From: Eledone cirrhosa
Taxonomy: Eukaryota
DNA length: 64,000 bases
Assembly (NCBI GenBank): GCA_964016885.1
Contig: OZ024745.1
Span: 115,010,001 to 115,074,000, forward strand
Reading direction: 5' to 3'
The stretch's first letter is position 1; every line of letters begins with the position of its first letter. The translations under genes were made by a program, and so were the position numbers. The notes below the pieces were generated by a model. It was given only the letters and a program-made list of their open reading frames with translations. It was not told where the DNA came from and did no database searches. Below are positions 37,906 through 64,000 of the stretch, piece after piece.

Positions 37906-38252
37906 TGTTCAATAGCTCCTTCTATTTTTTCAATATATTAAGGTATAATTTGAGTTAATTTAGCTGCTATTTCCAGCATGATGAGTGACTATGTAAAGGT
38001 TTCCCTCCTTAGATAGATGATTGGGTAGAAAAATATCTAACTAGCTTGCTAGACACATGACGCATAAATAGATGGACTGACAGATACACCAGTGGATAGA
38101 CAGATAGACAGATAGACAGATAGACAGATAGACAGATAGACAGATAGGTAGATATGTAGATAGGTAGATAGATAGATACAAAGAGGGTGTGGTAAGATAC
38201 CAGGTGGACCCAAACGCACCAGAGTGCTCGAAATTTGGGGAAGAGTGGGTAA

Positions 38253-38360
38253 TATGAAAAGATTCAGGACCCCGACGGCTGAGCTCCAGCCGTTTCGACA
38301 GCTAGATCTAACTGTCGAAACGACTGGAAATCAGCCGTCGGGGTCCTGAATCTTTTCATA
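38253..38360. repeat. 108-bp spacerless palindrome (54-bp arms, 4 mismatches) built from a hammerhead 3' half
   Basis: Arms compared base by base; centre agatct. Confidence 0.9.
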
Positions 38361-38371
38361 GATAGATAGAT

Positions 38372-38645
38372 ATGTTTCTTTTATTTGCCACCAGGGCATC
38401 AAAAGTGGGACAAGTACAATGGGGGGAGTTTACAAAACAAGGCGTCCTCAATAAGGAGGAGGCAATAACAAAATATAAAAATAAAATAAAATATAACAGA
38501 ATAAAATTTATAACAAAATCCTCAATAGAGAGGAGGCGCCTTGGGGGGTCGCACACACCCCCGAAAAAAAGTGTGCAACCCTTTTCCTCAGGAGCACAGA
38601 GAAGGGGTGCTCCCTTGGTCTTTCATCTTCCTCACCTATAGTCTG
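38372..38645 (-). mobile_element. LINE (L1/Tx1-like) 3' end; related pieces at ~48330-48660 (+) and ~46039-46320 (-)
   Basis: Shared terminus gccc(c)tg(g)tgg(c)…aataaa(a)gaaacatatctat. Confidence 0.5.
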
Positions 38646-39167
38646 ATGTAGAGATAGACAGGTAGATAGATAGATAGACAAATAATACAGACAGGCAAGC
38701 TGACAGACAGGCAGATATACAGACAGACAGATACATTGATAGGCAGAAATTAGGTCTATGTATGTATGATTGGCTGTACAGATGGAGAGAAAGATGTAGT
38801 GAAAGATGGATTAATGTTTAGATGTGTGGGAAGTTAAAAAGCTAGCTAACTAGTCAATTGGCTATCAACATTCTCATCTAATAATGTATCTGTCTAGCTC
38901 TACATCTTTCCTTGTCTAACTAGACAGCCTGCTAGATAAGAGATAGATTGACAGATTGACACACAGACATATCAACAAAGCTAAATGGACTGATAAATAT
39001 ATAATTGGATGGACAGATAGATAATTTGATAGAGATCGATAGAAAGATAGATAGATAAACAGATAGATAAATAGATAGGTAGACAGAAAGAAAGAAAGAT
39101 AGCTAGATAGGTAGGTAGGTAGATGAGTAGATAGAATGAGAGAAAAAATAAATATATAAATAGATTG

Positions 39168-39242
<75 letters not shown>

Positions 39243-39261
39243 GATAGATAGATAGAGTTAT

Positions 39262-42200
39262 AGACTTCATCATCCCCTGGTTGAACATCAACACCTGGCC
39301 TTTGGTTGTCTTTTCATAGAGTCCACTCTGTTGCAATCATCTTGGCCAAGTCTCTAATTTGAGAATACGTTTGTCCTTCCCTGTCATATACTTACATACA
39401 TAAATGATGGCTGCATCTCAATTTCATGAACTTCCCCCACCTGATCCCCCTTTCACATATAGGTGGCACGAACATGACTCTTTAGCCCTTCCAAAGATTT
39501 ACATTCCTTCTGAATTTGCTGCAGTGATGAACATTGCTTCCACTTCGGTTTGCTGTTTTGTTTTAGTGAGTTTTCAAATAACATTGAGGTCCACCTGCCA
39601 AGGCACATTGTTTTCCACACTTCCAACAGGAAGAAATGTCAAAGAGACCATAATCGACAACATTTTGTACATGGCTTCTATGATGACTTCTATGACCAGC
39701 TTTACTGAGGCAAATTCAGCCACATTCATTGCAAATAAAGTCATTTTGAGCATCCAGGAAAATAATTGTTTCTACTTTTGGCACAAGGCCAGCAATTACC
39801 CAGTGTATTACTGGTACTTTATTTTATCGACCCCGTAAGGATGAAAGGCAAAGTTAACCTCGGCGAGATTTGAACTCAGAATGGAAAGGGCTGTAACTCT
39901 TTGCAACAAAAAAAGGAAAATAATATTGTGTAGACCCTTATGCAGAGACCTCTTTAATTTTTCAGGCTCCACGTGAGATTTTTCAAATTTCTTTTTTCCA
40001 TTAAACACTGTTTTCTTCCCAGATGATCGATCTAAGGCAATGCTTTCCCTGTTATCTTCTATTTTTAACTTTATCAAAGCTCTTTCAATGCAGTCTTTAT
40101 ACCTGTATTTGGTTTATGCATTAGCCATTTGCCTTTGACTAACTCCCATACAGTAACTGCTTAGGAATGTGATGATCTAGTATTCCTAAAATGTAGCCAA
40201 TCCAGTGCAATCTATATTGAATTATGAGAGATTCAATACTTGCAAAATGACTTTGTTCTAGCACTTTAACATCACTCATGTGTGATTGTTAATGGATACT
40301 GAGTATTTGGCGAAGACACTGTCTATGAAAATGTTCAAACATTTTTATATTTCTCTGGTATGTGACCCAAGTTTCCCATGCATACAACAATGAAGACAAT
40401 AGACATGTTCTGTATATCTTTAACTTAGTATCAATGGAAATCCCATGTTGACACCAGAGATACCCATTTAGCTTACCAAACATTCTGACTATGGAAATGG
40501 AATTTAGAATCAAAAGGTTTGCGAGTATACTTAGTCAAAACTAAAGTGCTAGTGAGTAGGAGAGAAGATAGGACCCTGATTCCTTCTGGGAAGTGGTCAT
40601 GCTCAATATGCAGAAAAGGAGTGAGCATAAACTCCATAAGATGTACACAATGTAAATCTTGGATACACAAGAGATGTAATGGGATAATGGCTAGACTAAC
40701 AGGAAAGGAAGACATTTTGTAGAAGTTGCACAGTGGTAACCAAGGGGAAGAGCACCAGTGATGTAAACTTATTTCATTCACAGAAAGACCCATAGAAATG
40801 GTTGATAGCAGAAGCTATCAAGGCGATGTAATTAACAATGGAGGAGGGTGCTCTGAGGTGATAATAGTTAGAATAAGGATGGGATTGAAAAAGTTTAGAG
40901 AGCTGCTCTTACTGATGACCATAAAAGATTTTTCCCTATGCACAAAAGTATGACTCACAGAGGAGATGATAAAGGATCACAATGAGTGGAGAGACGCCAT
41001 GCAGAGAATCACCCTTCCAACCCATGCAAGCATGGAAAAATGGATGTAAAGACAATGATGATGATGATGCATGCAATCCTCAAATGCCATAAAGAAAAAC
41101 AAACATAGAAAAATACAATGCAAACAATGTAGATGCTGGTGTATACCCTTGTTTTACCATGTTTTCAACAAAAATGGGATCTGACATTTGTTCACCTATT
41201 TTGATGCAAGGTTGCATATCATCATGAAAACCTCCCAGAACTTGTCAGGACAACTGAGCTTAGTCAGAATCTTTCATAAGACAGTTCTATTCACTGCATC
41301 AAAAGCCTTTATCAAGTCAACAAAGACGTGATACAAATCTATTCCCTGTTCAAAGCACTTTTCCTGCAGTTGGCTCACAGAGAAGATCATATCTGTTGTC
41401 CCTACGTTACTTCTAAAGCCACACTATAACTCATGAAGATCATTGCCAGTGATGTTATCTAGCAACTGTCCAGCATGATCTTACACAAATTTTTCCTATA
41501 ACCAACAGGAGGGCTATCCCACAATAATTACCACAATTATCCTTTGCACCTTTTCCTTTATAAAACACCATCACCAGTGCATCTTTACAGTCTTAAGGAA
41601 TGTTTTCTTTTTCTCTAATCTTATGTATTATGTTTGTAAAAATTCGAAGAACATTTTGATTTCCACATTTCAGTACCTCAGCATGAATACCATCCTTCCT
41701 TGGTGACTTTTCACAATTGAGTTGTTTTATAGCCACCTCCATTTCCTCCAAGGTAGGACTTTTTCCAGTACATCATTTGTAAGCCAATTAGGAGTTGAGT
41801 TAATAAACTCCCTACTGACCTGAGAAGTCCTATTCAAAGGTTCCTTGAAGTGACCCTCCATTTCAAAATGATGTCTTTTGGATCTCTAAACAATTCATTG
41901 CCATTCTGAGATTTCAAAAGGGCAAAATTTCTCATAACAAGCTGTAAAGTTGCTTTGTATTGTTGGCATCAGCTGCAGCCTGATTCTCTGTAATTTAGCC
42001 TTCACTTCCTTCAACATTTCACTCCTTCCAGCTCCTTGCTCTCCTGCAAAAACACTCTTATCGTTGCTGTCTTCTTTTCATTAAGTAGCACTTCAATATC
42101 TTCCTCATTTTCATCAAACCAATCTTGATGTTTCCTATTAATAAAACCAAGAACAGATACTGAAACATCATAAATTAAGTTTTAAAATCTTCCCATCAGT

Positions 42201-42800
42201 AATTGCATTAGATCTTATCTAAATTTCTCACGAGCTCATCTTTTTTGAAGCATATTTTAATCAGAGCAATATTTAATTTGTTTTGGAACAACAATACCAT
42301 TTATTTATATCTTCAGCTTTACTACAAATTTTACCTTAGTGCAAACAAGACAATGGTATGTCTAGCACTCAGCTCCACACAGCACACAGACATCTAAAAA
42401 AACACTCCTATGCACAAGAACAAAATCTATCATATGCCACTGTTTTGAACCTAGATGCATTCAGGTTGTCTTGTGCTTCTCCTTGTGCTGGAAGAAAGTG
42501 TTAGCAATACATTTGCAGGAGTAACAACCATTGCTATTACATTTTCTAATCCAATGTTTGCCAATAATATCCCATGTTCTATGTCCTTTCCTAACCTAGC
42601 ATTAAAATGTCCAAGTTTGAGAATTTTATCAGATTGGGGAATCTTTTGGACAAGTTCTTTTAAGGAAAGATAAAATGTAAGCTTTTTGTCCTCTGTGGTG
42701 CACATAGTCAGAACATTTATGCTCACAAATGTAACATACCTATTTTTGGATAGTGGAACCCTCATACAAACGAGCCCACCAGAAGTGAAAGACCCCTGGT
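39262..42800 (-). mobile_element. Old, near full-length RTE (BovB-like) LINE with decayed APE, RT and three C-terminal C2H2 fingers; interrupted by a SINE (~39760-39905) and an RTE fragment (~40490-41070)
   Basis: DKILKLGHFNARLG (APE); FVDLIKAFDAVNR-like RT motif at ~41300; TKLKIYRTCLLSSLLYAWETW; CNECG*ICLSKAGHRSHHRSH at ~39680-39735. Confidence 0.8.
40490..41070 (+). mobile_element. Nested RTE LINE 3' fragment with PHD-like Cys motif
   Basis: WSCSICRKGVSINSIRCTQCKSWIHKRC and tail aacccatgcaagcatggaaaa…(gat)n. Confidence 0.75.
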
Positions 42801-43099
42801 CCTTGTTAGAATATCATTCTAGGAGAAGGAAAACTCTGATTAAAATCTGCAACTCGATGGCAGCCAATGATGTTGACCTGTTCTTTTTTTTTAGACACCT
42901 ATCACTGTTATTCAGAGAGTGGGGTCGGTTTAGTGCAAGACATGCATACATACATACACACATACATACATGCATGTATTCATGCACACGCACGCACACA
43001 CATACATACATAGATATATACATACAATAGAAGAAAAAGGTCAGTAGCCAGCTTTATGAGCATGAATATAATAATATTCTTAGGATAGCTACTGATCAA

Positions 43100-43685
43100 G
43101 AAGAGAGACATATAAATCCTGATATAAATCTCTCTTCCAGGAATATTGGAAGACTCTACTCAATTCTCTAACAAAAAAAGAAAAATTAGAAGATTGTACA
43201 TGAGTACTTGAGATGAAAAACACAGGCCACAGAGGGGATAAACCATACTAAAAGCATGACATAAAGTTCTGACAAGTTCATAACATCCTACCTTGAAGGA
43301 TATCTCCATGCAATCAGAAACAAGAAATCCCACCAAGTACCTACTGCACAAAAGAGGAAGGTTATTAATTGACAATAAATGTAGGGTGTGCAAAACAAAC
43401 ATTAAAGGTGTTAGCCACATTATTGCCAACTGTAAAAAAATATCTTCTCATTACTACCTCCCCATGAGGCATAATGTGGTAGCTAGAACAATCTGGAATG
43501 CAGATCAAATAGGGAGGAATATGTTGAGACTGATGGCTAAAAAGAATACTGGTGGAACCTAAAAATAAAAACTGCCACCAAATTAAAGCACAACAAACCT
43601 GATATTGTTGTTTGGGATCACACATAAAAAAGCATGCTCTGTTGCAGAAGTCAGCTGCCCACTTGTCAATGTGGTAAAAAAAATG
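43100..43685 (+). mobile_element. R2/R4-clade non-LTR fragment (CCHC zinc knuckle, RHN motif, restriction-like endonuclease)
   Basis: CRVCK…SHIIANC…RHNVVA followed by HNKPDIVVWD…AEVSCP in a shifted frame. Confidence 0.75.
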
Positions 43686-43730
43686 CACGACACACACACA
43701 CACACACACACATACATACATAAATATATA

Positions 43731-44478
43731 TTTCCCAATAACTTATCCAGTTATTGACGCCCTGGGGCGAGATATATTGTCTTAAAGCGTAGAAATATCC
43801 GAGACCTCAGTAGACAACTGATGAGGAACCCCCCCCCCCCCCCTGTTCTTGCTTTCTTCGTATTCCCACTGCATTTTAAGTTACCTTAAATAGCAACTAC
43901 ACAACCATTTCTATTCTCCATATATTTCATCATGTTTTTGCTGTGACCATTCTTCTTTCCCCTTCTACCTACCTATTTCACTACTTTCTACTCTCACCCC
44001 TCTTTCTTCCCCTCCCTTTCTACTCTTACCCCACTTTCTTCCTCTCCCTTTCGCCCTCTCACTTTCACCCGCTCTTCTGACCGTTTAGCAGTTCTCTTCT
44101 CACATACAACTGCGGGGATCAGACGTGTCTTTTTCCTCTCGACCACTCAGTCTTAAACTTAGTTCTCTTATCGAGTGGTCTTGGATTTCCTACCTATAGT
44201 TGCTCGCATATTGCTCGGTTTTTTGTTTTTTTTTGCTGTTTTGTTATTGTTTTCTCTTTTCTTCCCCTTTGCTTTCCTTCCCTCCTTCCTCTGTTTTCCC
44301 AATAACTTACCCAGTTATTGATGCCCTGGGGCGAGGTGTATTGTCTTTAAATCGTAGAAATATCCGAGACCCCCAGTAGACAACTGATGAGGAAAACTCC
44401 CCTCCCCCATTCTTGCTTTCTTCGTATTCCCACTGCATTTTAAGTTACCTTAAATAGCAACTACACAGCCATTTCTAC
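43731..44478 (+). repeat. Two ~180-bp direct repeats (43731-43913, 44295-44478) flanking a pyrimidine-rich spacer; Penelope pLTR-like, each with hammerhead core elements
   Basis: Direct alignment of the two copies; CTGATGA and GAAA with complementary flanks in both. Confidence 0.8.
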
Positions 44479-44494
44479 ATATATATATGTATAT

Positions 44495-44636
44495 ATATTT
44501 AATATAGAAATGCCTTCTACAGGATTAGAACTGTTTCATTCGAAGGAAATCATCAAGAAATCCCTGATGTTTTCCTGATGATTTCCTTCGAATGAAACAG
44601 TTCTAGTCTTGTAGAAGCAATTTCTATATTAAATAT
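44495..44636. repeat. Inverted repeat (66-bp arms, 10-nt spacer) containing a hammerhead-like motif
   Basis: 44495-44560 is the reverse complement of 44571-44636 with a few mismatches. Confidence 0.88.
44571..44617 (+). ncRNA. Type I hammerhead-ribozyme-like motif
   Basis: TTTC-CTGATGA-TTTC(cttc)GAAT-GAAA-CAG(ttctagtc)TTG-TA|GAAG. Confidence 0.6.
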
Positions 44637-44721
44637 TTATACTCTACTATGTAGTCAGTACCTTACTTACTGTGTTTACCCTTGATTGAACCCTCGATAC
44701 ACACACACACATATATATATA

Positions 44722-44768
<47 letters not shown>

Positions 44769-44899
44769 AGGCAACAAAATGACACATTCATTAAAACATT
44801 CGATTAAATGCCATTATAGAAGTATTGTTAATAGAAATTGCTTGAAAATGATCTATAATTGTACTTCAAACATTAAGAACATAATAACACAGAAACCAA

Positions 44900-45300
44900 T
44901 ATTTGGAATACATGCTCATGTTGAAGTAAAGAATTGTGCTTGATGAACCAAGCTTTCAACACTAAAGCTCTAATATATTAAACAGAAGTTAGATCAACTA
45001 ATAAAACCAGCAAAATTGACACAAAGAGAAAAATCTAAATAGGAATGACTGAAAGGAGATTCAAACCACAATAGGAAAACCACAAAGCTTTCTTCAGAAT
45101 AAAGATAGAGATCAGTAACAACATTGTCCAAGTATGAATGTGGTTAAAAGATAACATGTATGAATAATTAGAGGAAAAAAAAAACACCATACATCAATAA
45201 GATAGGAAGATGTCAGTTATTGAACAGCTAAAAATATTCTAATAATTTCCAAAATATTTGTTTAAAATGTTTTGGATCATGCTGTCACATTCATATATAC
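44900..45300 (+). mobile_element. Decayed Penelope-like GIY-YIG endonuclease fragment
   Basis: IGMTERRFKPQ*ENHKAFFR…TLSKY resembles YIGxTxxxFKxRxxxH…TxLSK of PLE endonucleases. Confidence 0.55.
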
Positions 45301-46334
45301 ATGTTAAAAATCCTGCTACCTAATTACACCCCTGACATGATGCTAGAAGAAGTAGGTCTCCTAAAGATATCCCTACATAATAGTTTATCTAATTCTACCA
45401 CTTTAATTCCAACTGCTCACATACCATATAGTACACTGAAACCTTAAACATTTACTTTCCAAATATAGTTAAATTCAGAGTATATTATCAATATGAATGT
45501 TACTTGCCTTCGTATTTTTAGATATATTCATATGGGACTTAATTCATTCCAGCTGCTCATATACTATATGAAAACCTTAATACACTAACATTCTGAGCAT
45601 CTTTACTTTTACTTAAATTTAAACCTACAGATAAATATATTCATATGAAGTTGAAAAAATATTTACTTGTATTAGATTATTAGAAGTATACCAATGGGAC
45701 TTAACAGTTTCCTTTTTAATCAATACTCCTCTTCCTTCCATAGTTGACCTAAATAATTATATTGAATTGATTTATATAATAGAAGATTTTACTCATGGGA
45801 GGTAACCTTCCTACCAAAGAAATATTAATATATTATTTGTACTGGTGCAATGGTAAACCCAAGCTTAAGAATACTAGCGATGCAAAATAACATGTAACAG
45901 GCAATTCACATGGTGAAACTTTAAGTAGCTATCTAATTGCGATCTAATGTGCTATATTGGTATTTAATACTGAATTGAATTTTCTTCAACTTATTCCATG
46001 ATGATATACAGTGCAGTATATATATGTATATATATATCACCTATAGATCAGGGGAGCACACCAACCAAATAGATTTTATTTTTATCCGAAGACAAAACAG
46101 AGTGACAGTTATAAATACAAAGTCCCTCCCTGGTGAAGAATACACCTCCCAACACAACCTAATAGTTAGCGATCTTATAGTCTAGACGAACTCGGCAGCA
46201 GAGGACAACTTTGAGTCGAAGAATATGGAAGTTGAAGGACCTCATAGCCAGTAACAAATTTAGAGGCATGTTGCTTGGTGCCCGTATTGTAAACCAAGTA
46301 ATAAAAATGGTGTCATACCAATGATTGGCATAGC

Positions 46335-47750
46335 AGCATCATCGTCAACCTCTACAAGGGCAAAGGAGATGCTCTAGATAGAAAACTGTAGAGGGATTAA
46401 GTTGGTCGACTAGATGATGAACGTTTCAGAAAGAGTTATTGTACAGCTGATTACTGAGTTAAGCTTGATGAAATGCATTTTGGATTTGTGCCAAGTAAAA
46501 GTACCACAGATGCTCTCTTCTTGGCGAGGCAACTGTAGAAGAAGTGCCTAGCTAAAAGTAAACCCCTCTAATTAGCTTTTGTTGACTTGGAGAAAGTCTC
46601 TGAAAAAGTCCTCCGTTCCATTATCTGGTGGACTCTTAGAAAACTAGGACTAGATGAGTGGCTTGAGGGCAGTACAAGCCATGTATAGAGGAACAGTTAG
46701 CAAGGTTAGAATTAACAATAACTATAGTGAAGATTTTAGCATGCAGGTAGGTATCCATCAGAGCTCTGTTCTTCGTCCTCTCCTGTTTATTATTGTCCTA
46801 TATGCTATAACAGAAGAGTTTAAGACTATCTGCCTATGGGAACTTCTGTATGCAAATGATCTAACCCTAATACTTGAATTTTTGGCAGAATTAGAGAAAA
46901 GATTCCAGACCTGGAAATATAGGTTAGAATCAAAAGGTCCGAAAGTTAAAGGAAAATAGGGCCCAGATCCCCTCAGGGAAATGACCTTGCTCAGTGTGCA
47001 GGAAATGAGTAGGTATAAATTCCATCCTATATCCCAAATGCAAGCTATATGTATATAAAAGATATAGTGGGATCACAGGCAGGCTATCATAGAATGTATG
47101 TTTTATATGTGGCTGATGCACAGGTGCAGTAAGTAGCAAGTGCCCACAGGATACTAACTCCTTCAAATGCCCAGACAGCTCTGTAGAAATAGTCTACAGT
47201 TTTCATTACATGGGTGACCAAATCAGCAGTGGAGGAGAGTGTTCTGAAAGTACAGTAGCCAGAGTAAGAACAGGATGGAGAAAGTTCAGGAAGCCACTAC
47301 TGGTTCTAGCTACAAAAGGTTTTTCACTCAAAATGAAGGGCAGATTGTATGATTCATGTATATGAACAGCAATGTTGCATGGTAGTGAGACCTGGGCACT
47401 GTGAGCAGAGGACCTGTGAAGATTGGAAAGAAATGAAGCATGCATGCTCCGATGGATGTGTAATAGTAATATACATGAACAGCAAAGCGAAAATGAACTG
47501 AGAGAGATATTGGGCATAAGAGGGATCAGATGCAGTGTGCTCAAGAGGAGATTGCGTTGGTATGGTCATGTGATAGGTATGAAGGATGACAGCTGCATAA
47601 AAAGGTGCAGGACAATCAAAGTTGAAGGAAGTTATGAAGTAGGATGAGGTCATAAAAGCTAACCTTGCACAATTGCACCTTTCAAAGACAATGGCACAAG
47701 ATCGAGATCTTTGACGTTATGCAGTAATGCAGAAAACCTGCCTTCCCATG
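46335..47750 (+). mobile_element. Decayed RTE LINE (RT, PHD-like motif and C-terminus)
   Basis: FVDLEK, GIHQSSVLRPLLFIIV, ELLYANDL (YADD-derived) and RRLRWYGHV motifs with stops and frameshifts. Confidence 0.85.
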
Positions 47751-49779
47751 TGCATGGACTAAAACATATATCTAGTAGGCACCTCTTAACCACTATAGCC
47801 CCTTCCATACACCTCCCATGCCGTAACGCTTCTGTTCACACCACCCTAATCCTATAAAGTTGTCATGTTGGTATCACAACAAAACACATCCAGCTTACAC
47901 TGTCAAGTGGTCGTGTAGGTGTCATGACACAAAGCATCCAGCCCACACTGTCAAGTGGTCGTGTAGGTGTCATGACACAAAGCATCCAGCCCACACTGTA
48001 GTTGTGTAGGTGTCCCAACAAAAAGCTCCCACCCAACACTGTACAGTGTTGTCATGTAGATGTCATGACAAAAAGTTCCCAGCACACACAGTAAATGTGG
48101 TTGGTGTTAGGGAGGGTATCCAGCTGTAGAAATCAAGCTAGAAACTGTTCTGTTTCAGCAAGACATCGTAACCTGACCCGACTTGCCTCAAACGAGACAA
48201 CCTGTCTAATCATGCTAGTATGGAAAATGGACGTTAAATGATGATGATGATGATGATGATGATGATATATATATTTATATATACACTTATATACACATAT
48301 ATATATATATTGGTAGTCTGTGGTACTGGGGCTGGAAGACCACAAATCAAAGAACTACACCGAGGAAGATTGTGAGATTGATCAGGGATTTCGAGACTAG
48401 GAACAGGTAGTGATGTAACCACTACCTGCTAGTCAATATATCAATCTACCAAGATCAATGAACCCTTTGAAACAATTATAAAACAATGAACTAATTACTC
48501 ACCTATCTATATTTTATCTACTGTCTCCCCCTATTGGGGAAAATCGACTCATTTTTTAAATTGCATTTGTGATAATATTTTACACGTTTTTACTGTATGT
48601 AAACTTCCCCCTTTGTATTTGTCCCCTCTTTTTGTGCCCCTGTGGCTAATAAAGAAACATATCTATATTTTATCTACATTGTTCAATACACACGCACACA
48701 CACTCATATATATCATCATCATCATTTTACGTCCGCTTTTCCCTGCTTGCAAGGGTGGGACGGGAACTGATTCTGGCTTGATTTCTACAGCTGGATGCCC
48801 TTCCTAACACCAACCTCATTTACAGTGAGTGCTGGGTGTTTTTTTTCCGTGGTGCCTACACGTCCACTTTACAGTGTGGGCTGGGTGCTTTTTTGCCGTG
48901 GCACCTCCACAAAGACTTTGCAGTGGAATGATAGGGACCCCAGTCCCTATCATCTCATTTCTACAGCTGAGTAAACTGGAACAATGTGAAATAAAGTGTC
49001 TTGCTCAAGGGCACAACACATCACATATATATATATATATAGAATGGAAAACGAAAAATCAATGATGTATCGGAACCCAATTTATTGTGTGTTACAATTG
49101 TTTCCCCGGCAAACAGCTTGAGGTGTGATCTATGTGTGGATCAACCTGACTCTGGATTCGCAGGTTCCTCGGACACATCTATTGATTTCAGAGCATATCC
49201 TCTTCATATATATCACATCATCATCATCGTTTAACGTCCATCTTCCCGCTAGCATGGGTTAGACGGTTTTGTTCCACATTTGATGCGGGATTGGTCTGGA
49301 GACCATGTCTCGCTTGTAAGGAAGTGTCTCTGGCAGGTTTTCTACGGCTGGATGGCCTTCCTAACACCAACCACATTTACAGTGTGGACTGGGATCCTTT
49401 TTACCATGTCTCCTACACGACCACCTTAGAGTGTGGACTGGGTGCTTTTTGTTGTGGACGGAAATGGGAGGATGAAGTAGGGTGTGTGGGGTGGGGTGGG
49501 GTGTATATTGGGTTAAGAGGTGCCTACTGACTGTAGGTTTGTATGCAAGGGAAGGCAGGTCTTCTGTACAACTGCATAGCACTAAAGATCTCGATCCAGT
49601 GACATTTTCTTGTATATGTAAGTCCTGGGTTCAATCGGGGGTAACCACAGTAAGTAAGGTACTCAATGCATAGTAGAGTATATACAAGATTTAATTTCGA
49701 AGTGGCTTTAATATAGAAGCCATTTCTGTCTCTCTCTCTCTCTACACACACACACATATACATATATGGGTTGTTTATT

Positions 49780-50290
49780 TAATGCAGTATACAGTAAATT
49801 CTTGATTTTTAAAATCTTCACTCTGAGTGATGGTAAAAAATATCTAGTAACAACTGCTTGTGATTCCAAAGGAGTGGGAGAGATAATTTTAATTAATTAG
49901 GAATAGATTTTCAAATAAAGGACAGTGTAATCTGTGATGTAAGCAAGGAACAACAATGTACATATGTTTCTCAGAAGAGAAAAACCAAAGCTTGAACTGA
50001 TAATCAAAATGAAAGTGGACAGCAAGGCATGTTATTGCTTTTTTTATTCCAAATATTATGAACATTATGAATTGACAACCCAGCCAATGTACTGGAAATT
50101 GAACATGAAGCCACTCATGGACAGTGCATGCAAAATGAGGAGGGGCTCCATCTTGCTGTTGTTCCAAGTGGTCAGAGTAGGCCAAAAGTTGTATGTAATT
50201 TTCATTAGGGAGTTTCTTTCCAATAATTTTCGCCTAACGTTATTCAAATAATTTAATGTAGAATTGTCTTGAAACATCTCTAAGGAATTA
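49780..50290 (-). mobile_element. Tc1/mariner transposase fragment
   Basis: QQDGAPPHFACTVHEWLHVQFPVHWLG is the second catalytic Asp motif. Confidence 0.65.
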
Positions 50291-52567: not shown

Positions 52568-54803
52568 AGAAGGCTGGTGAGATACAAACTGCGTCAGATT
52601 CCAATAACACAAAGCTGTTGTACAGTCTCTTGCGTGAGGTTTATGGACCGTCTTCTTCTCTGGCGACACCGCTTCGCAGCAAGGATGGCAAAGAACTTCT
52701 TTGTGACTCACAAGGAATTCTACGAAGGTGGTGAGAGCACTTTGATGATCTTTTGAATCAGCCGTCTGTCGTCAGTGAAGATTTCCTCAATCTCATTCCA
52801 GAAAGTCCTGTGAAAGTAGCTCTCGCAGAACCTCCGACGCTTGTGGAGGTTGCAGTGGCTATCTCGAAGCTGAACAGTGGAAGGTCTCCAGGTATGGATG
52901 GCATACATGCTGAGCTCCTACAATATGGTGGTGAGAGACTCCTGCAACATCTTCACTCTTTGTTTGGCAGGATATGGGCTAATGAATCCGTACCTGAGGA
53001 CTGGAGAGATGCAGTAATGGTGGTCTTGTACAAGGGAAAGGGTAACAGGAATGATTGTGGGAACTACAGAGGTATATCATTGCTTTCTGTCGTAGGGAAA
53101 GTTTTATGTAGGGTGCTTCTGTGCTGACACACATTGCAGATTGTGTTCTTCCTGAAAGTCAATCTGGTTTTCGTGCTGGACGCAGCACTACTGATATGAT
53201 CTTCTCAGCTAGACAGCTCCAGGAGAAGTGCTTGGAACAAGGTTTGGATCTGTATCAGGTTTTTGTCGATCTGACAAAAGCTTTCGATACTGTTAACAGA
53301 GATGCATTATGGAAGGTTCTCCAGAAACTTGGTTGCCCTGATAAGTTCCTTGCTTTAGTTAGGTCGTTCCATGACGACATGAAGGCTTGGGTTAATGTCA
53401 GAGGTAACATGTCGGAGCCTATCTCAGTAAAAAATGGAGTGAAACAGGGGGATATTCCAGCACCGACCCTGTTTGCCATATACTTTGCAATGGTTTTCTG
53501 TATTGCATTCAGGAATTGCGAGCATGGTGTTTACATCCGATATCGAACCTCAGGCAGCATATTTAACATCAGGCGCTTTGCTGCAAAGACAAAAGTATTT
53601 ACATCAATCATAAGAGACCTCTTGTATGCAGATGATTGCGATCTTGTAGCGCATACAGAGAGTGATATGCAGCACATTTTGAATGCATTTTCTGACGCTT
53701 GCACTGCCCTAGGATTGACTGTCAGTCTCAAGAAAACCGTCGTCATGTACCAACCTGCCCCTGGTAAGCAGTACACTGAACCAAATATCTATGTGTATGG
53801 TAAACGACTTGGAGTGGTTGATCAGTTAGTCTACCTGGGAAGCACTGTCAATCGATACAGCAACCTTGATAGTGAAATCTCACTTAGGATTAGGAAAGCA
53901 AGTGATGCTTTCAGAAAGCTAGAAAGGTGACTCTGGGGTTGGCGAGACATATGCAGGAGGACAAAGGTAAAGGTGTACAAGGCATGTGTGCTCCCTTGTC
54001 TTCTTTATGCCTGGGTCACATATCGACACCACCTTAAGCAATTGGAGCGTTTCCATCAGATGTGTCTCAGACGGATCCATGGCGTTCACTGGAGGGACCA
54101 CGTCAGTGATGTCGAGATTTTGGAAAGCTCTATGTGTGACAGTATAGAAGTTCTTGTGCTTAAGCAACGACTCCATTGGAGTGGTCACCTAGCCAGGATG
54201 AATGATTCTAGAATACCAAAACAACTCTTTTATGGAGAGTTAGTTAAAGGAAAACGACCACCACATAAACCAAAAAAGAGGTATAAGGATTCCTTGAAAG
54301 CCTCTTTGAAAGACGCTAACATCTCTGCTGATACATGGGAAAATATTGCTGCTGATCGTAATAAATGGAGAAAGACTGTATATGAGGGAAAAGTTGCCTT
54401 TGAGGCATCTCGAATCGCATACGAGAAAGTAAAGTGGGATGTGAGGAAGGGCATTGCTGTTGCACTTCCAGATGCCGAGGGTCCTCCTATGGTGCTGACA
54501 TGCAGCGTCTGTGCGAGACTCTGCCTAAGCAAAGCTGGACTCGAAAGTCATCTTCGCAGTCATAAAGTAAGACCAGTGGTTGACTACCAGGCAGCTGTTG
54601 AAGATGCTACTCATCAAGCTTGCCAAGCATGTGGTAGAGAATGTAAATCAGCATGAGGGCTCAAGCAACATGCAAAAGTACATGAAGTCCAACTACAGCT
54701 GGCTATTCCCAGTGAATGTTTTGGTTGCCGACTCTGTGCAAGACGTTTTAGATCATTGGCTGGGTTAAAAAGCCACATTCGATCGCAGCGCTGTTAGTTG
54801 CTA

Positions 54804-63386: not shown

Positions 63387-64000
63387 TTCGCTTTTTGTTG
63401 TTTTCAATCATTAAACTGTGGCAATGTTGGAACACTGCCTTGAATCGACCCCCAGGAATAATTTTTTCAAATCTGGTATCTATCTTATTGATCCCTTTTT
63501 GCCAAGTTGCTAAGTTATGGCATATAAACAAAGAAATGAACACACACACACACATGCATATTATATGTATATATATTTTTAAATATATATATAGGTATTA
63601 AATGATGATAATGGTGATGATGGTGATGATGATGATACAACAGGCTTCCATACAGTTTCTATCTACGAAAAATTTTACTCTCAAAGCATTAATCAACACA
63701 GAGTTATATTAGAAAAGAATTGTGAATTTCATAACTGCACAGTCACGCCTGCACTTATATATATATATATGTAAAGTTCTATTTAAATTGTTGGGATACG
63801 ACAAGCAAATATTTTTATAACTGATATAAAGCACTCAACAAATATTTGGAGTAAAAATACGATATTAATAAATGGAAACTATATTTATAAAACCATATTT
63901 ATTTCATTATACATATTTCAAGGACACCAAGTTAAATTATGGTGTGCTTTCATCAGATAAAATATAATATAGAACAGTTTTATAAATAAATATTGACATA

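Follow-up and report, generated by a model that had tools for sequence, protein, structure and literature searches.

A predicted hammerhead of non-circular block order in a likely non-autonomous Naiad derivative of Eledone cirrhosa

Introduction

Two stretches on the forward strand of the Eledone cirrhosa window (the 64,000 nucleotides of contig analysed here), 43731-43913 and 44295-44477, repeat one another with 91% identity, and each carries the letters of a hammerhead ribozyme core, CUGANGA, GAAA and UH. Neither the circular block order nor the Rfam match expected of types I, II and III is found, and the two stems flanking the cut site have to cross. The locus raises the question of whether such a repeat cuts its own RNA, and which kind of element carries it. 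Base pairs that change in step across the families of this repeat suggest that it likely does. With a probability of about 0.78, the element is read here as a likely non-autonomous Naiad derivative with a predicted hammerhead fold in the order cut site, GAAA, CUGANGA (S-G-C), which would likely self-cut after 43776 and 44340. A retroelement group held to lack standard hammerheads likely uses a reordered form.

A partial tandem of a Penelope-like element

Together, the twin repeats form a partial tandem of one 564-nt non-coding Penelope-like element set in (TA)n. The hallmarks of the insertion (43731..44477, + strand) mean that the twin 'LTRs' are to be read as 46 nt, one full 564-nt monomer and 137 nt. 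The target is a (CA)n/(TA)n tract on the left (43686..43730) and (TA)n from 44478 on the right. Measured from predicted cut to predicted cut, as judged from the core positions and the 5'-end edge of copies, the monomer covers 43777..44340 (+) and is likely the RNA template unit. Its pyrimidine-rich non-coding body (43914..44294, +) is common to other copies and free of open frames of 100 aa. Each of the two copies in the window has private changes and may be dead.

Elsewhere in the genome, the best 30 loci are truncated at the 5' end to varying degrees, are flanked by (TA)n and include partial tandems and inverted copies. In a set of 100 copies chosen by their tail there are 12 tandem pairs, spaced 542-593 nt, and 77 mapped 3' ends, most of them clustered 73-88 nt into the tail and 52 flanked by TA; both strands are present at 5 of 89 loci, representing inverted copies. 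All the traits of a non-autonomous Penelope-like element are thus found, namely partial tandems, 5' truncation, inverted copies, a variable tail, a microsatellite target and no ORF, and they match the hallmarks listed in the accessible part of Craig et al. 2021 (PMC8557442). The first-pass annotation had described a Penelope-like, LTR-like repeat (a pseudo-LTR), with which the tandems, the truncation and the TA flanks agree.

Several other repeats lie nearby. A 72-nt inverted repeat (44489-44642) adjoins the element; its + arm carries a core of canonical order, with CUGAUGA at 44575-81, a short stem II, GAAA at 44594-97, GUC at 44606-08 and an indistinct stem I. This repeat, probably the end of another Penelope-like family, occurs at very high depth in contigs of unspecified kind and has a relative in locus L148. 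A reverse transcriptase fragment (RVT_1, E 5e-26) at 53112-53927 is unrelated to the hammerhead element, and tandem units of about 48 nt fill 47859-48192 and 48763-49456, with inverted relatives 0.6-1.5 kb off.

Core blocks and predicted fold

The core of copy 1 consists of GATATA (43771-76), TTGTCT (43777-82), GAAATATC (43792-99), AGACAA (43812-17) and CTGATGA (43818-24); in copy 2, A17 lies at 44340 and CTGATGA at 44384-90. Every coordinate that had been assigned to the core elements of the two copies was correct. Block S (43771..43782, +; 44335-44346 in copy 2) comprises one strand of stem III, U16.1 (43775), A17 (43776), the predicted cut between 43776 and 43777 (44340 and 44341 in copy 2) and one strand of stem I. 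Block G (43792..43799, +; 44357-44364) holds GAAA and the second strand of stem III, and block C (43812..43824, +; 44378-44390) the second strand of stem I and CUGAUGA. A lenient six-order descriptor (stem I of 5 bp, stem III of 4 bp, block order free) called S-G-C cores at both copies, with cuts before 43777 and 44341. A weak C-G-S match near 63907 looks like chance in AT-rich sequence. An Rfam scan of 38000-50000 returned no hammerhead match up to E 10, nor any other credible family, in line with the expectation that standard searches would miss the motif.

Around this core, further helices are predicted on the + strand. The outer stem III helix pairs 43762..43767 with 43805-43810 (44326-44331 with 44371-44376 in copy 2) and is separated from stem III by a 3x6 internal loop, whose short side is 43768..43770 and whose long side, minus one C in copy 1, is 43800-43804 (44332-34 with 44365-70 in copy 2). 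Helix Px, in the place of stem II, joins 43757..43760 to 43787-43790, just 5' of GAAA; its counterpart in copy 2 (44321-44324 with 44352-44355) contains one broken pair. The 8-bp hairpin Pa (43736..43756; 44300-44320 in copy 2) is an arm of the four-way junction and is missing from some families. Finally, helix P0 pairs 43732..43735 with 43825-43828, immediately 3' of CUGAUGA (44294-44299 with 44391-44396 in copy 2).

Nested folding did not recover the crossed core, the lowest-energy nested fold of copy 1 being a different one, and the minus strand folds no better. A canonical hammerhead with GAAA right after CUGAUGA was rejected, since this GAAA is absent from many copies and families; hairpin, twister and HDV-like readings, compared by consensus only, were dropped after the hammerhead helices were found to covary.

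Covariation across families

Of 238 motif instances, 154 were retained; the other 84 had no similar partner upstream and were discarded. Forty real copies, hand-chosen across families, were aligned with MAFFT from sequence only, and two families with other peripheral helices were omitted. In this alignment, the copies of which are related to each other and overlap the sequences from which the structure model was drawn by eye, a blind MI-APC ranking of 5,264 column pairs placed predicted pairs at ranks 1-7, 10, 14 and 15. Predicted pairs were formed in 92% of 1,318 cells, versus 78% after shuffling and 31-46% after sliding, and double changes were seen in 28 of the 33 pairs. A tree test counted 54 joint changes over 34 pairs, compared to 16.8 +/- 2.9 for matched random partners. 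The covariation among copies that the first-pass annotation had proposed as a check was thus found, and it agrees with a hammerhead core of non-circular order in which helices I and III cross.

The two stems on either side of the cut site, I and III, both covary. Stem I is 98% paired, with double changes in all 6 pairs and 12 joint changes on the tree; in families collected with a pattern forbidding the stem I letter of the window, the upstream strand, unspecified in that pattern, had switched to the complement (AAATCA with TGATTT, AAACAG with CTGTTT). Stem III is 93% paired, with double changes in 3 of 5 pairs and 4 joint changes. The best-supported helix is outer stem III (MI-APC ranks 1, 6, 7, 10 and 14; 19 joint changes), and Px, with rank 5 and 89% pairing, has an inner pair read as AU in 15, UA in 14 and GC in 6 copies. 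Pa is 94% paired and has double changes in 7 of its 8 pairs. P0 forms 5 or more base pairs of its own in 19 of 40 copies, versus 18% of 1,262 cross-family swaps, and is the weakest helix in the tree test, its few joint changes (3) being due to a register that shifts from family to family. Covariation supports stems I and III, the outer helix of stem III, Px, Pa and, less strongly, P0, and the block order is shown as well.

No stem II had been seen at this locus at first. This stands for a simple helix formed directly by the two core strands, the positions of which are paired in 24, 1, 15 and 18 of the 40 copies, with the 10.1-11.1 pair alone reaching 24; the helix that links stem I to stem II in tested type-SGC ribozymes is likewise absent from the 40 aligned copies. 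It does not stand for the core strands themselves, as each has another, upstream partner in a four-way junction. The partner of the strand preceding stem I is outer stem III, and that of the strand following CUGANGA is the 5' end of the motif.

Across the internal loop of stem III, position 1n is A in 37 copies, 2n is G in 20 and U in 19, 1b is G in 38 and 2b is A in all 40, and the lone pair L2-3b is formed in 33 of 40 with 4 joint changes. The kink-turn is a 3-nt bulge followed by tandem G-A and A-G pairs, placed between two helices. The loop resembles it in having a 3-nt bulge and then GA opposite A between helices. It differs from it in the second tandem G, found in only half of the copies, in the covarying lone pair across the loop, in one family that pairs GA normally, and in a coral form with a 7-nt bulge. 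It may be either k-turn-like or a lone-pair triloop, with a predicted bend.

Variants of the build were observed among the remaining families. Loci L164, L182, L190 and L203 form an S-G-C family with Px that lacks the loop GA, and in which the strand after CUGANGA seems to be paired between Px and outer stem III; an old family (L092, L111, L116, L135, L148) has no hairpin Pa and carries a G10.1-C11.1 pair. These are the two families omitted from the alignment. In L121, L140 and L094 the four-way junction is perfect, the loop GA is normally paired and a plain 3-nt bulge remains.

Preferential conservation of the core among copies, also predicted at the outset, was not found within one subfamily. 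In the 68 full-span copies out of 100 from the subfamily of the window, the core columns decay like the others (4.4% vs 6.1% departures), which means that selection acted on the source elements and not on these copies. Flat conservation of this kind is expected for dead copies, and the signal sits between subfamilies. The same copies bear on the suggestion that the substitutions in copy 2 keep its pairings. The S-G-C core is indeed found there, but the substitutions are weak evidence, as most of them are rare or private: 44338 G occurs in 6 of the 68 copies, 44322 T in 5 and 44352 T in none, the last of these breaking a pair, and only 44336 G is common (43 of 68).

Covariation is blind to whether two strands pair within or between molecules, and it would look the same if the active form were a dimer or protein-aided, that is, if two repeat units or two RNAs built one core from unchanged helices and the monomer alone were inactive. 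The elements do occur in tandems, minimal Penelope hammerheads cleave as dimers according to the title of Lunse 2017, and a need for protein is known from the Anolis Poseidon hammerhead, reported in the accessible part of PMC11167929 to be cut only with protein. Against this, one unit holds all strands with short linkers, the loop of stem III is not palindromic, solo copies as well as single-motif Naiad 3' UTRs (in the consulted part of the Naiad records) hold the whole set, and the tested type-SGC RNAs cleave in cis (PMC10085705). A dimeric or protein-aided form is consequently considered unlikely; in the structure model, the fold closes without need of the dimer that had been suggested for this repeat.

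Ends of copies at the predicted cut

An RNA that begins at the cut should leave copies whose ends lie immediately beyond it. In a set of 150 copies, selected by the sequence from GAAA onward, 37 break at most 62 nt upstream. With two small-indel artefacts removed, 21 ends fall at +1..+16 versus 9 at -46..-6 (0.0088 vs 0.0018 per nt, p 2e-5). In the 100 tail-picked copies, which have a few loci in common with the former set and from which one duplication was removed, the same two intervals hold 8 and 7 ends (p 0.01); compared to +17..+75, the excess in this set does not reach significance (p 0.075). Three loci (L352, L353 and L294) have internal deletions of pre-cut sequence that end at +1. Together with L371 and L012, they make up a group of pre-cut deletions ending at or near +1, which would fit an imprecise template jump.

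The coral-type family described below provides 110 distinct usable ends among the 121 metagenome matches listed: 56 at +1..+8, with 10 at +1 and none at +2, 7 at -1/-2, 13 at -4..-45 and 34 further upstream (p 9e-19). Contig assembly favours short copies and the search pattern conceals ends beyond +8, yet neither explains the spike at +1. TA microhomology, stalling of the reverse transcriptase and, in metagenome contigs, the assembly bias towards short copies could all add to the pile-up of ends.

Such contributions would suffice if the fold were a binding or stalling element for the reverse transcriptase or endonuclease, the core letters a relic, and the ends the product of stalling or TA microhomology. 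The missing plain stem II would fit this reading, as would the 39 coral-type ends at +5..+8 compared to 10 at +1 among the matches listed, the rise of ends as early as +17..+34 in the tail-picked set, and the TATA directly before the site in the families of this genome. The core letters argue otherwise. The conservation of CUGANGA, GAAA and, in part, the loop GA is circular, because these were written into the search patterns, whereas U16.1 and N17 were never in any pattern; U16.1 is nevertheless kept in 38 of 40 copies, and N17 is A in 23, C in 12, U in 3, G in only 1 and a gap in 1. Within CUGANGA only N7 varies (U 26, C 7, A 7), and the variation at N7 and N17 is hammerhead-like. Furthermore, the edge and the spike hit the predicted nucleotide in the coral-type family, which has no listed preference for TA, and few ends lie in the AT-rich hairpin upstream. 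A pure stalling element is thus quite improbable, and a cut at the predicted nucleotide is the preferred reading of these ends.

Relatives in the genome and in Naiad elements

Related motifs number more than 10,000 in the 3.0-Gb genome, as counted with disjoint sequence patterns. The window-type pattern has 1,788 matches versus 3 for the reversed control, a second pattern in which the stem I letter of the window is forbidden has 8,323 versus 10, and further disjoint patterns have 1,169 (control 21) and 58 (control 9). The matches split into many subfamilies.

The same build appears in published Naiad consensi. In the part of the 54 records of File S5 of PMC8557442 that was read by eye, the 3' UTRs of Naiad_Ovul and of the preceding record (Naiad_Obim by file order) hold, in sense, the whole motif in other letters, with P0, Pa, Px, outer stem III, the loop GA and stems III and I. 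Those of Naiad_Amil, _Aacu and _Anas carry it, also in sense; there stem III is 13 bp long, the bulge measures 7 nt and the junction is perfect. By the same reading, S-G-C with Px is present in a Morbakka record and in one record of part 19, and Naiad_Esco has stems I and III and the outer helix with no clear Px. A 20-letter piece of the coral motif gave at least 121 matches in a metagenome scan, and in full copies among them the helices are preserved, while stem I, P0 and outer stem III show compensatory changes. At one of 120 loci among the matches listed (L561), a 140-residue Naiad ORF remnant ends 300 nt upstream of the motif on the same strand. A Pfam search of this peptide named no family; the relatives of its frame, 72-77% identical, are ORFs of 953-954 residues with an N-terminal GIY-YIG match (E 7e-4, below the curated cut-off) followed by the reverse transcriptase, and those that are named are coral proteins.

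In the Eledone genome itself, decayed Naiad ORFs were found at 11 of 20 motif-hit loci and in 7 protein-search matches; remnants at L212, L220, L221, L226, L230 and L721-L727 are about 70-78% identical to one another. Both the decayed ORFs and the motifs of this genome look like those of published Octopus Naiads. None of these 11 and 7 remnants has a readable intact motif behind it, and neither regex scans of flanks nor the 20 motif hits and 7 protein hits revealed an intact autonomous partner joined to a readable motif. The motif at L236, close to a Naiad remnant, was rejected as such a partner for being a separate insertion. Because the remnants are too decayed to show the motif, the Naiad partner in this genome is only inferred; the window repeat is likely a non-autonomous Naiad derivative. 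Two further observations concern related elements. L118:97-869 is a Penelope-like ORF remnant of canonical order with a weak GIY-YIG match (E 0.002), on the strand opposite a motif copy. Naiad-2_Nbra and Naiad-3_Nbra (by file order), together with three records of File S5 (parts 13, 15 and 16), show by eye a hammerhead of the order C-S-G, complete in these nematode Naiads with all of stems I to III plus a joining helix; type CSG was formerly known from two metagenome sequences only.

The reading that short motifs fell into this arrangement by chance, in a repeat that lacks any RNA function, could point to the 0.1 S-G-C matches that the lenient descriptor makes in each shuffled window (n=20), to the other nested fold of copy 1 and to core columns kept no better than the rest inside the subfamily, but it is refuted by the covariation of the helices across families and by their recurrence with unrelated letters in distant animals, pattern matches in viral contigs with stems I and III being 0 of 111.

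Proposed mechanism

Within the preferred reading of a self-cutting S-G-C hammerhead, Px, Pa and P0 would join the A9-G12 pair to form a four-way junction that takes over the role of stem II. Stem III would be bent back by the internal loop, so that stem I, Px and outer stem III would come together at their far ends, and the linkers of 1-5 nt between them could close a cage within one molecule. Cuts after N17 would then free a cut-to-cut monomer.

A partner reverse transcriptase would prime inside this monomer, about 140-160 nt past the cut, and copy towards the cut end; an internal start is described for the Penelope-like reverse transcriptase of a Poseidon element in the accessible part of PMC11167929. 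Stopping at the cut end would yield short copies that begin just after the cut. Carrying on across the junction, by way of a circle or a template jump, would yield partial tandems as well as deletions ending at the cut. The insertion in the window spans the junction twice, for which a circle, a pair of jumps or an uncut multimer would be needed. The role of the cutting itself is tempered by the Anolis Poseidon hammerhead, the cleavage of which was, in the same part of that source, protein-dependent and dispensable in vitro, with no ends in RNA-seq.

Comparison with known hammerheads and retroelements

The first-pass annotation considered the RNA topologically novel or dimer-assembled. Novelty of the block order did not hold, as the non-circular order UH, GAAA, CUGANGA is that of the type-SGC hammerhead (Eckert 2023, PMC10085705), described from 583 metatranscriptome sequences (HRIMA-1 and variants), none of them in genomes of known organisms, and able to cleave in vitro. 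The window motif shares with it the order, the crossing stems, all core letters and the short linker that connects stem I with the strand before GAAA. The differences lie in the build and the host. Type-SGC has a plain stem II and a helix that links stem I to stem II where the window motif has separate upstream partners in a four-way junction and a stem III with a kinked extension, and type-SGC is confined to metatranscriptomes while the window motif has its >10,000 genomic matches in a retroelement. Because neither a plain stem II nor the helix between stems I and II is present, both of which the tested type-SGC ribozymes need, self-cleavage here does not follow from PMC10085705. What is new is the genomic retroelement host and the different build.

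Type I hammerheads are reportedly found in Penelope-like pLTRs and non-LTR retrozymes, in the work of Cervera and de la Pena. As far as the accessible parts of the sources go, the window element resembles the pLTR hammerheads of Penelope/Poseidon, Neptune and Hydra and the non-LTR retrozymes in being a Penelope-derived tandem of non-coding monomers of a few hundred nucleotides, with one hammerhead per monomer. Those type I hammerheads run CUGANGA, GAAA, cut site, and their stem II is a hairpin, whereas the window order is S-G-C; the type I hammerhead per tandem unit that marks a non-LTR retrozyme is therefore missing.

With Naiads, according to the accessible part of Craig et al. 2021 (PMC8557442), the element shares the partial tandems, 5' truncation, inverted copies, variable tail and (TA)n target and, judged by eye, the motif build in the 3' UTR of the Octopus and Acropora consensi; unlike a Naiad, it has no ORF. 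In that part of the paper, Naiads are reported to lack canonical hammerheads, and eight 'HHR_half_core' cases, including Naiad_Ovul, are flagged without a structure. Within the freely accessible literature searched, no paper placed permuted hammerheads in Naiads or animal genomes, and 'type-SGC' occurred in Eckert 2023 only; in the portion seen, PMC13725137 merely cites hammerhead permutations.

Significance

Beyond this locus, the evidence leans towards a wider reading in which the Naiad clade is the main natural home of non-circularly permuted hammerheads: cephalopods, corals, a box jellyfish and an arthropod would have S-G-C with a four-way junction for stem II, nematodes would have C-S-G, and both forms would be self-cleaving, with a cut that sets the 5' end of the template and a pseudo-LTR that arises as the reverse transcriptase crosses the cut junction. 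Retrozyme and ribozyme screens with type I-III models overlook these elements; a retrozyme preprint (bioRxiv 10.64898/2026.07.22.740005), in its accessible part, screens with type I models only. If the reading is true, non-circularly permuted hammerheads would shift from rare RNAs of metatranscriptomes to animal genomes, in more than 10,000 copies, and a hammerhead build with a four-way junction in place of stem II would be added. The edge in the 5' ends of copies would be a genomic read-out of cutting in vivo and would come with a testable model of pseudo-LTR formation. The reading would also account for the seeming lack of a hammerhead in Naiads, alone among the large Penelope-like clades.
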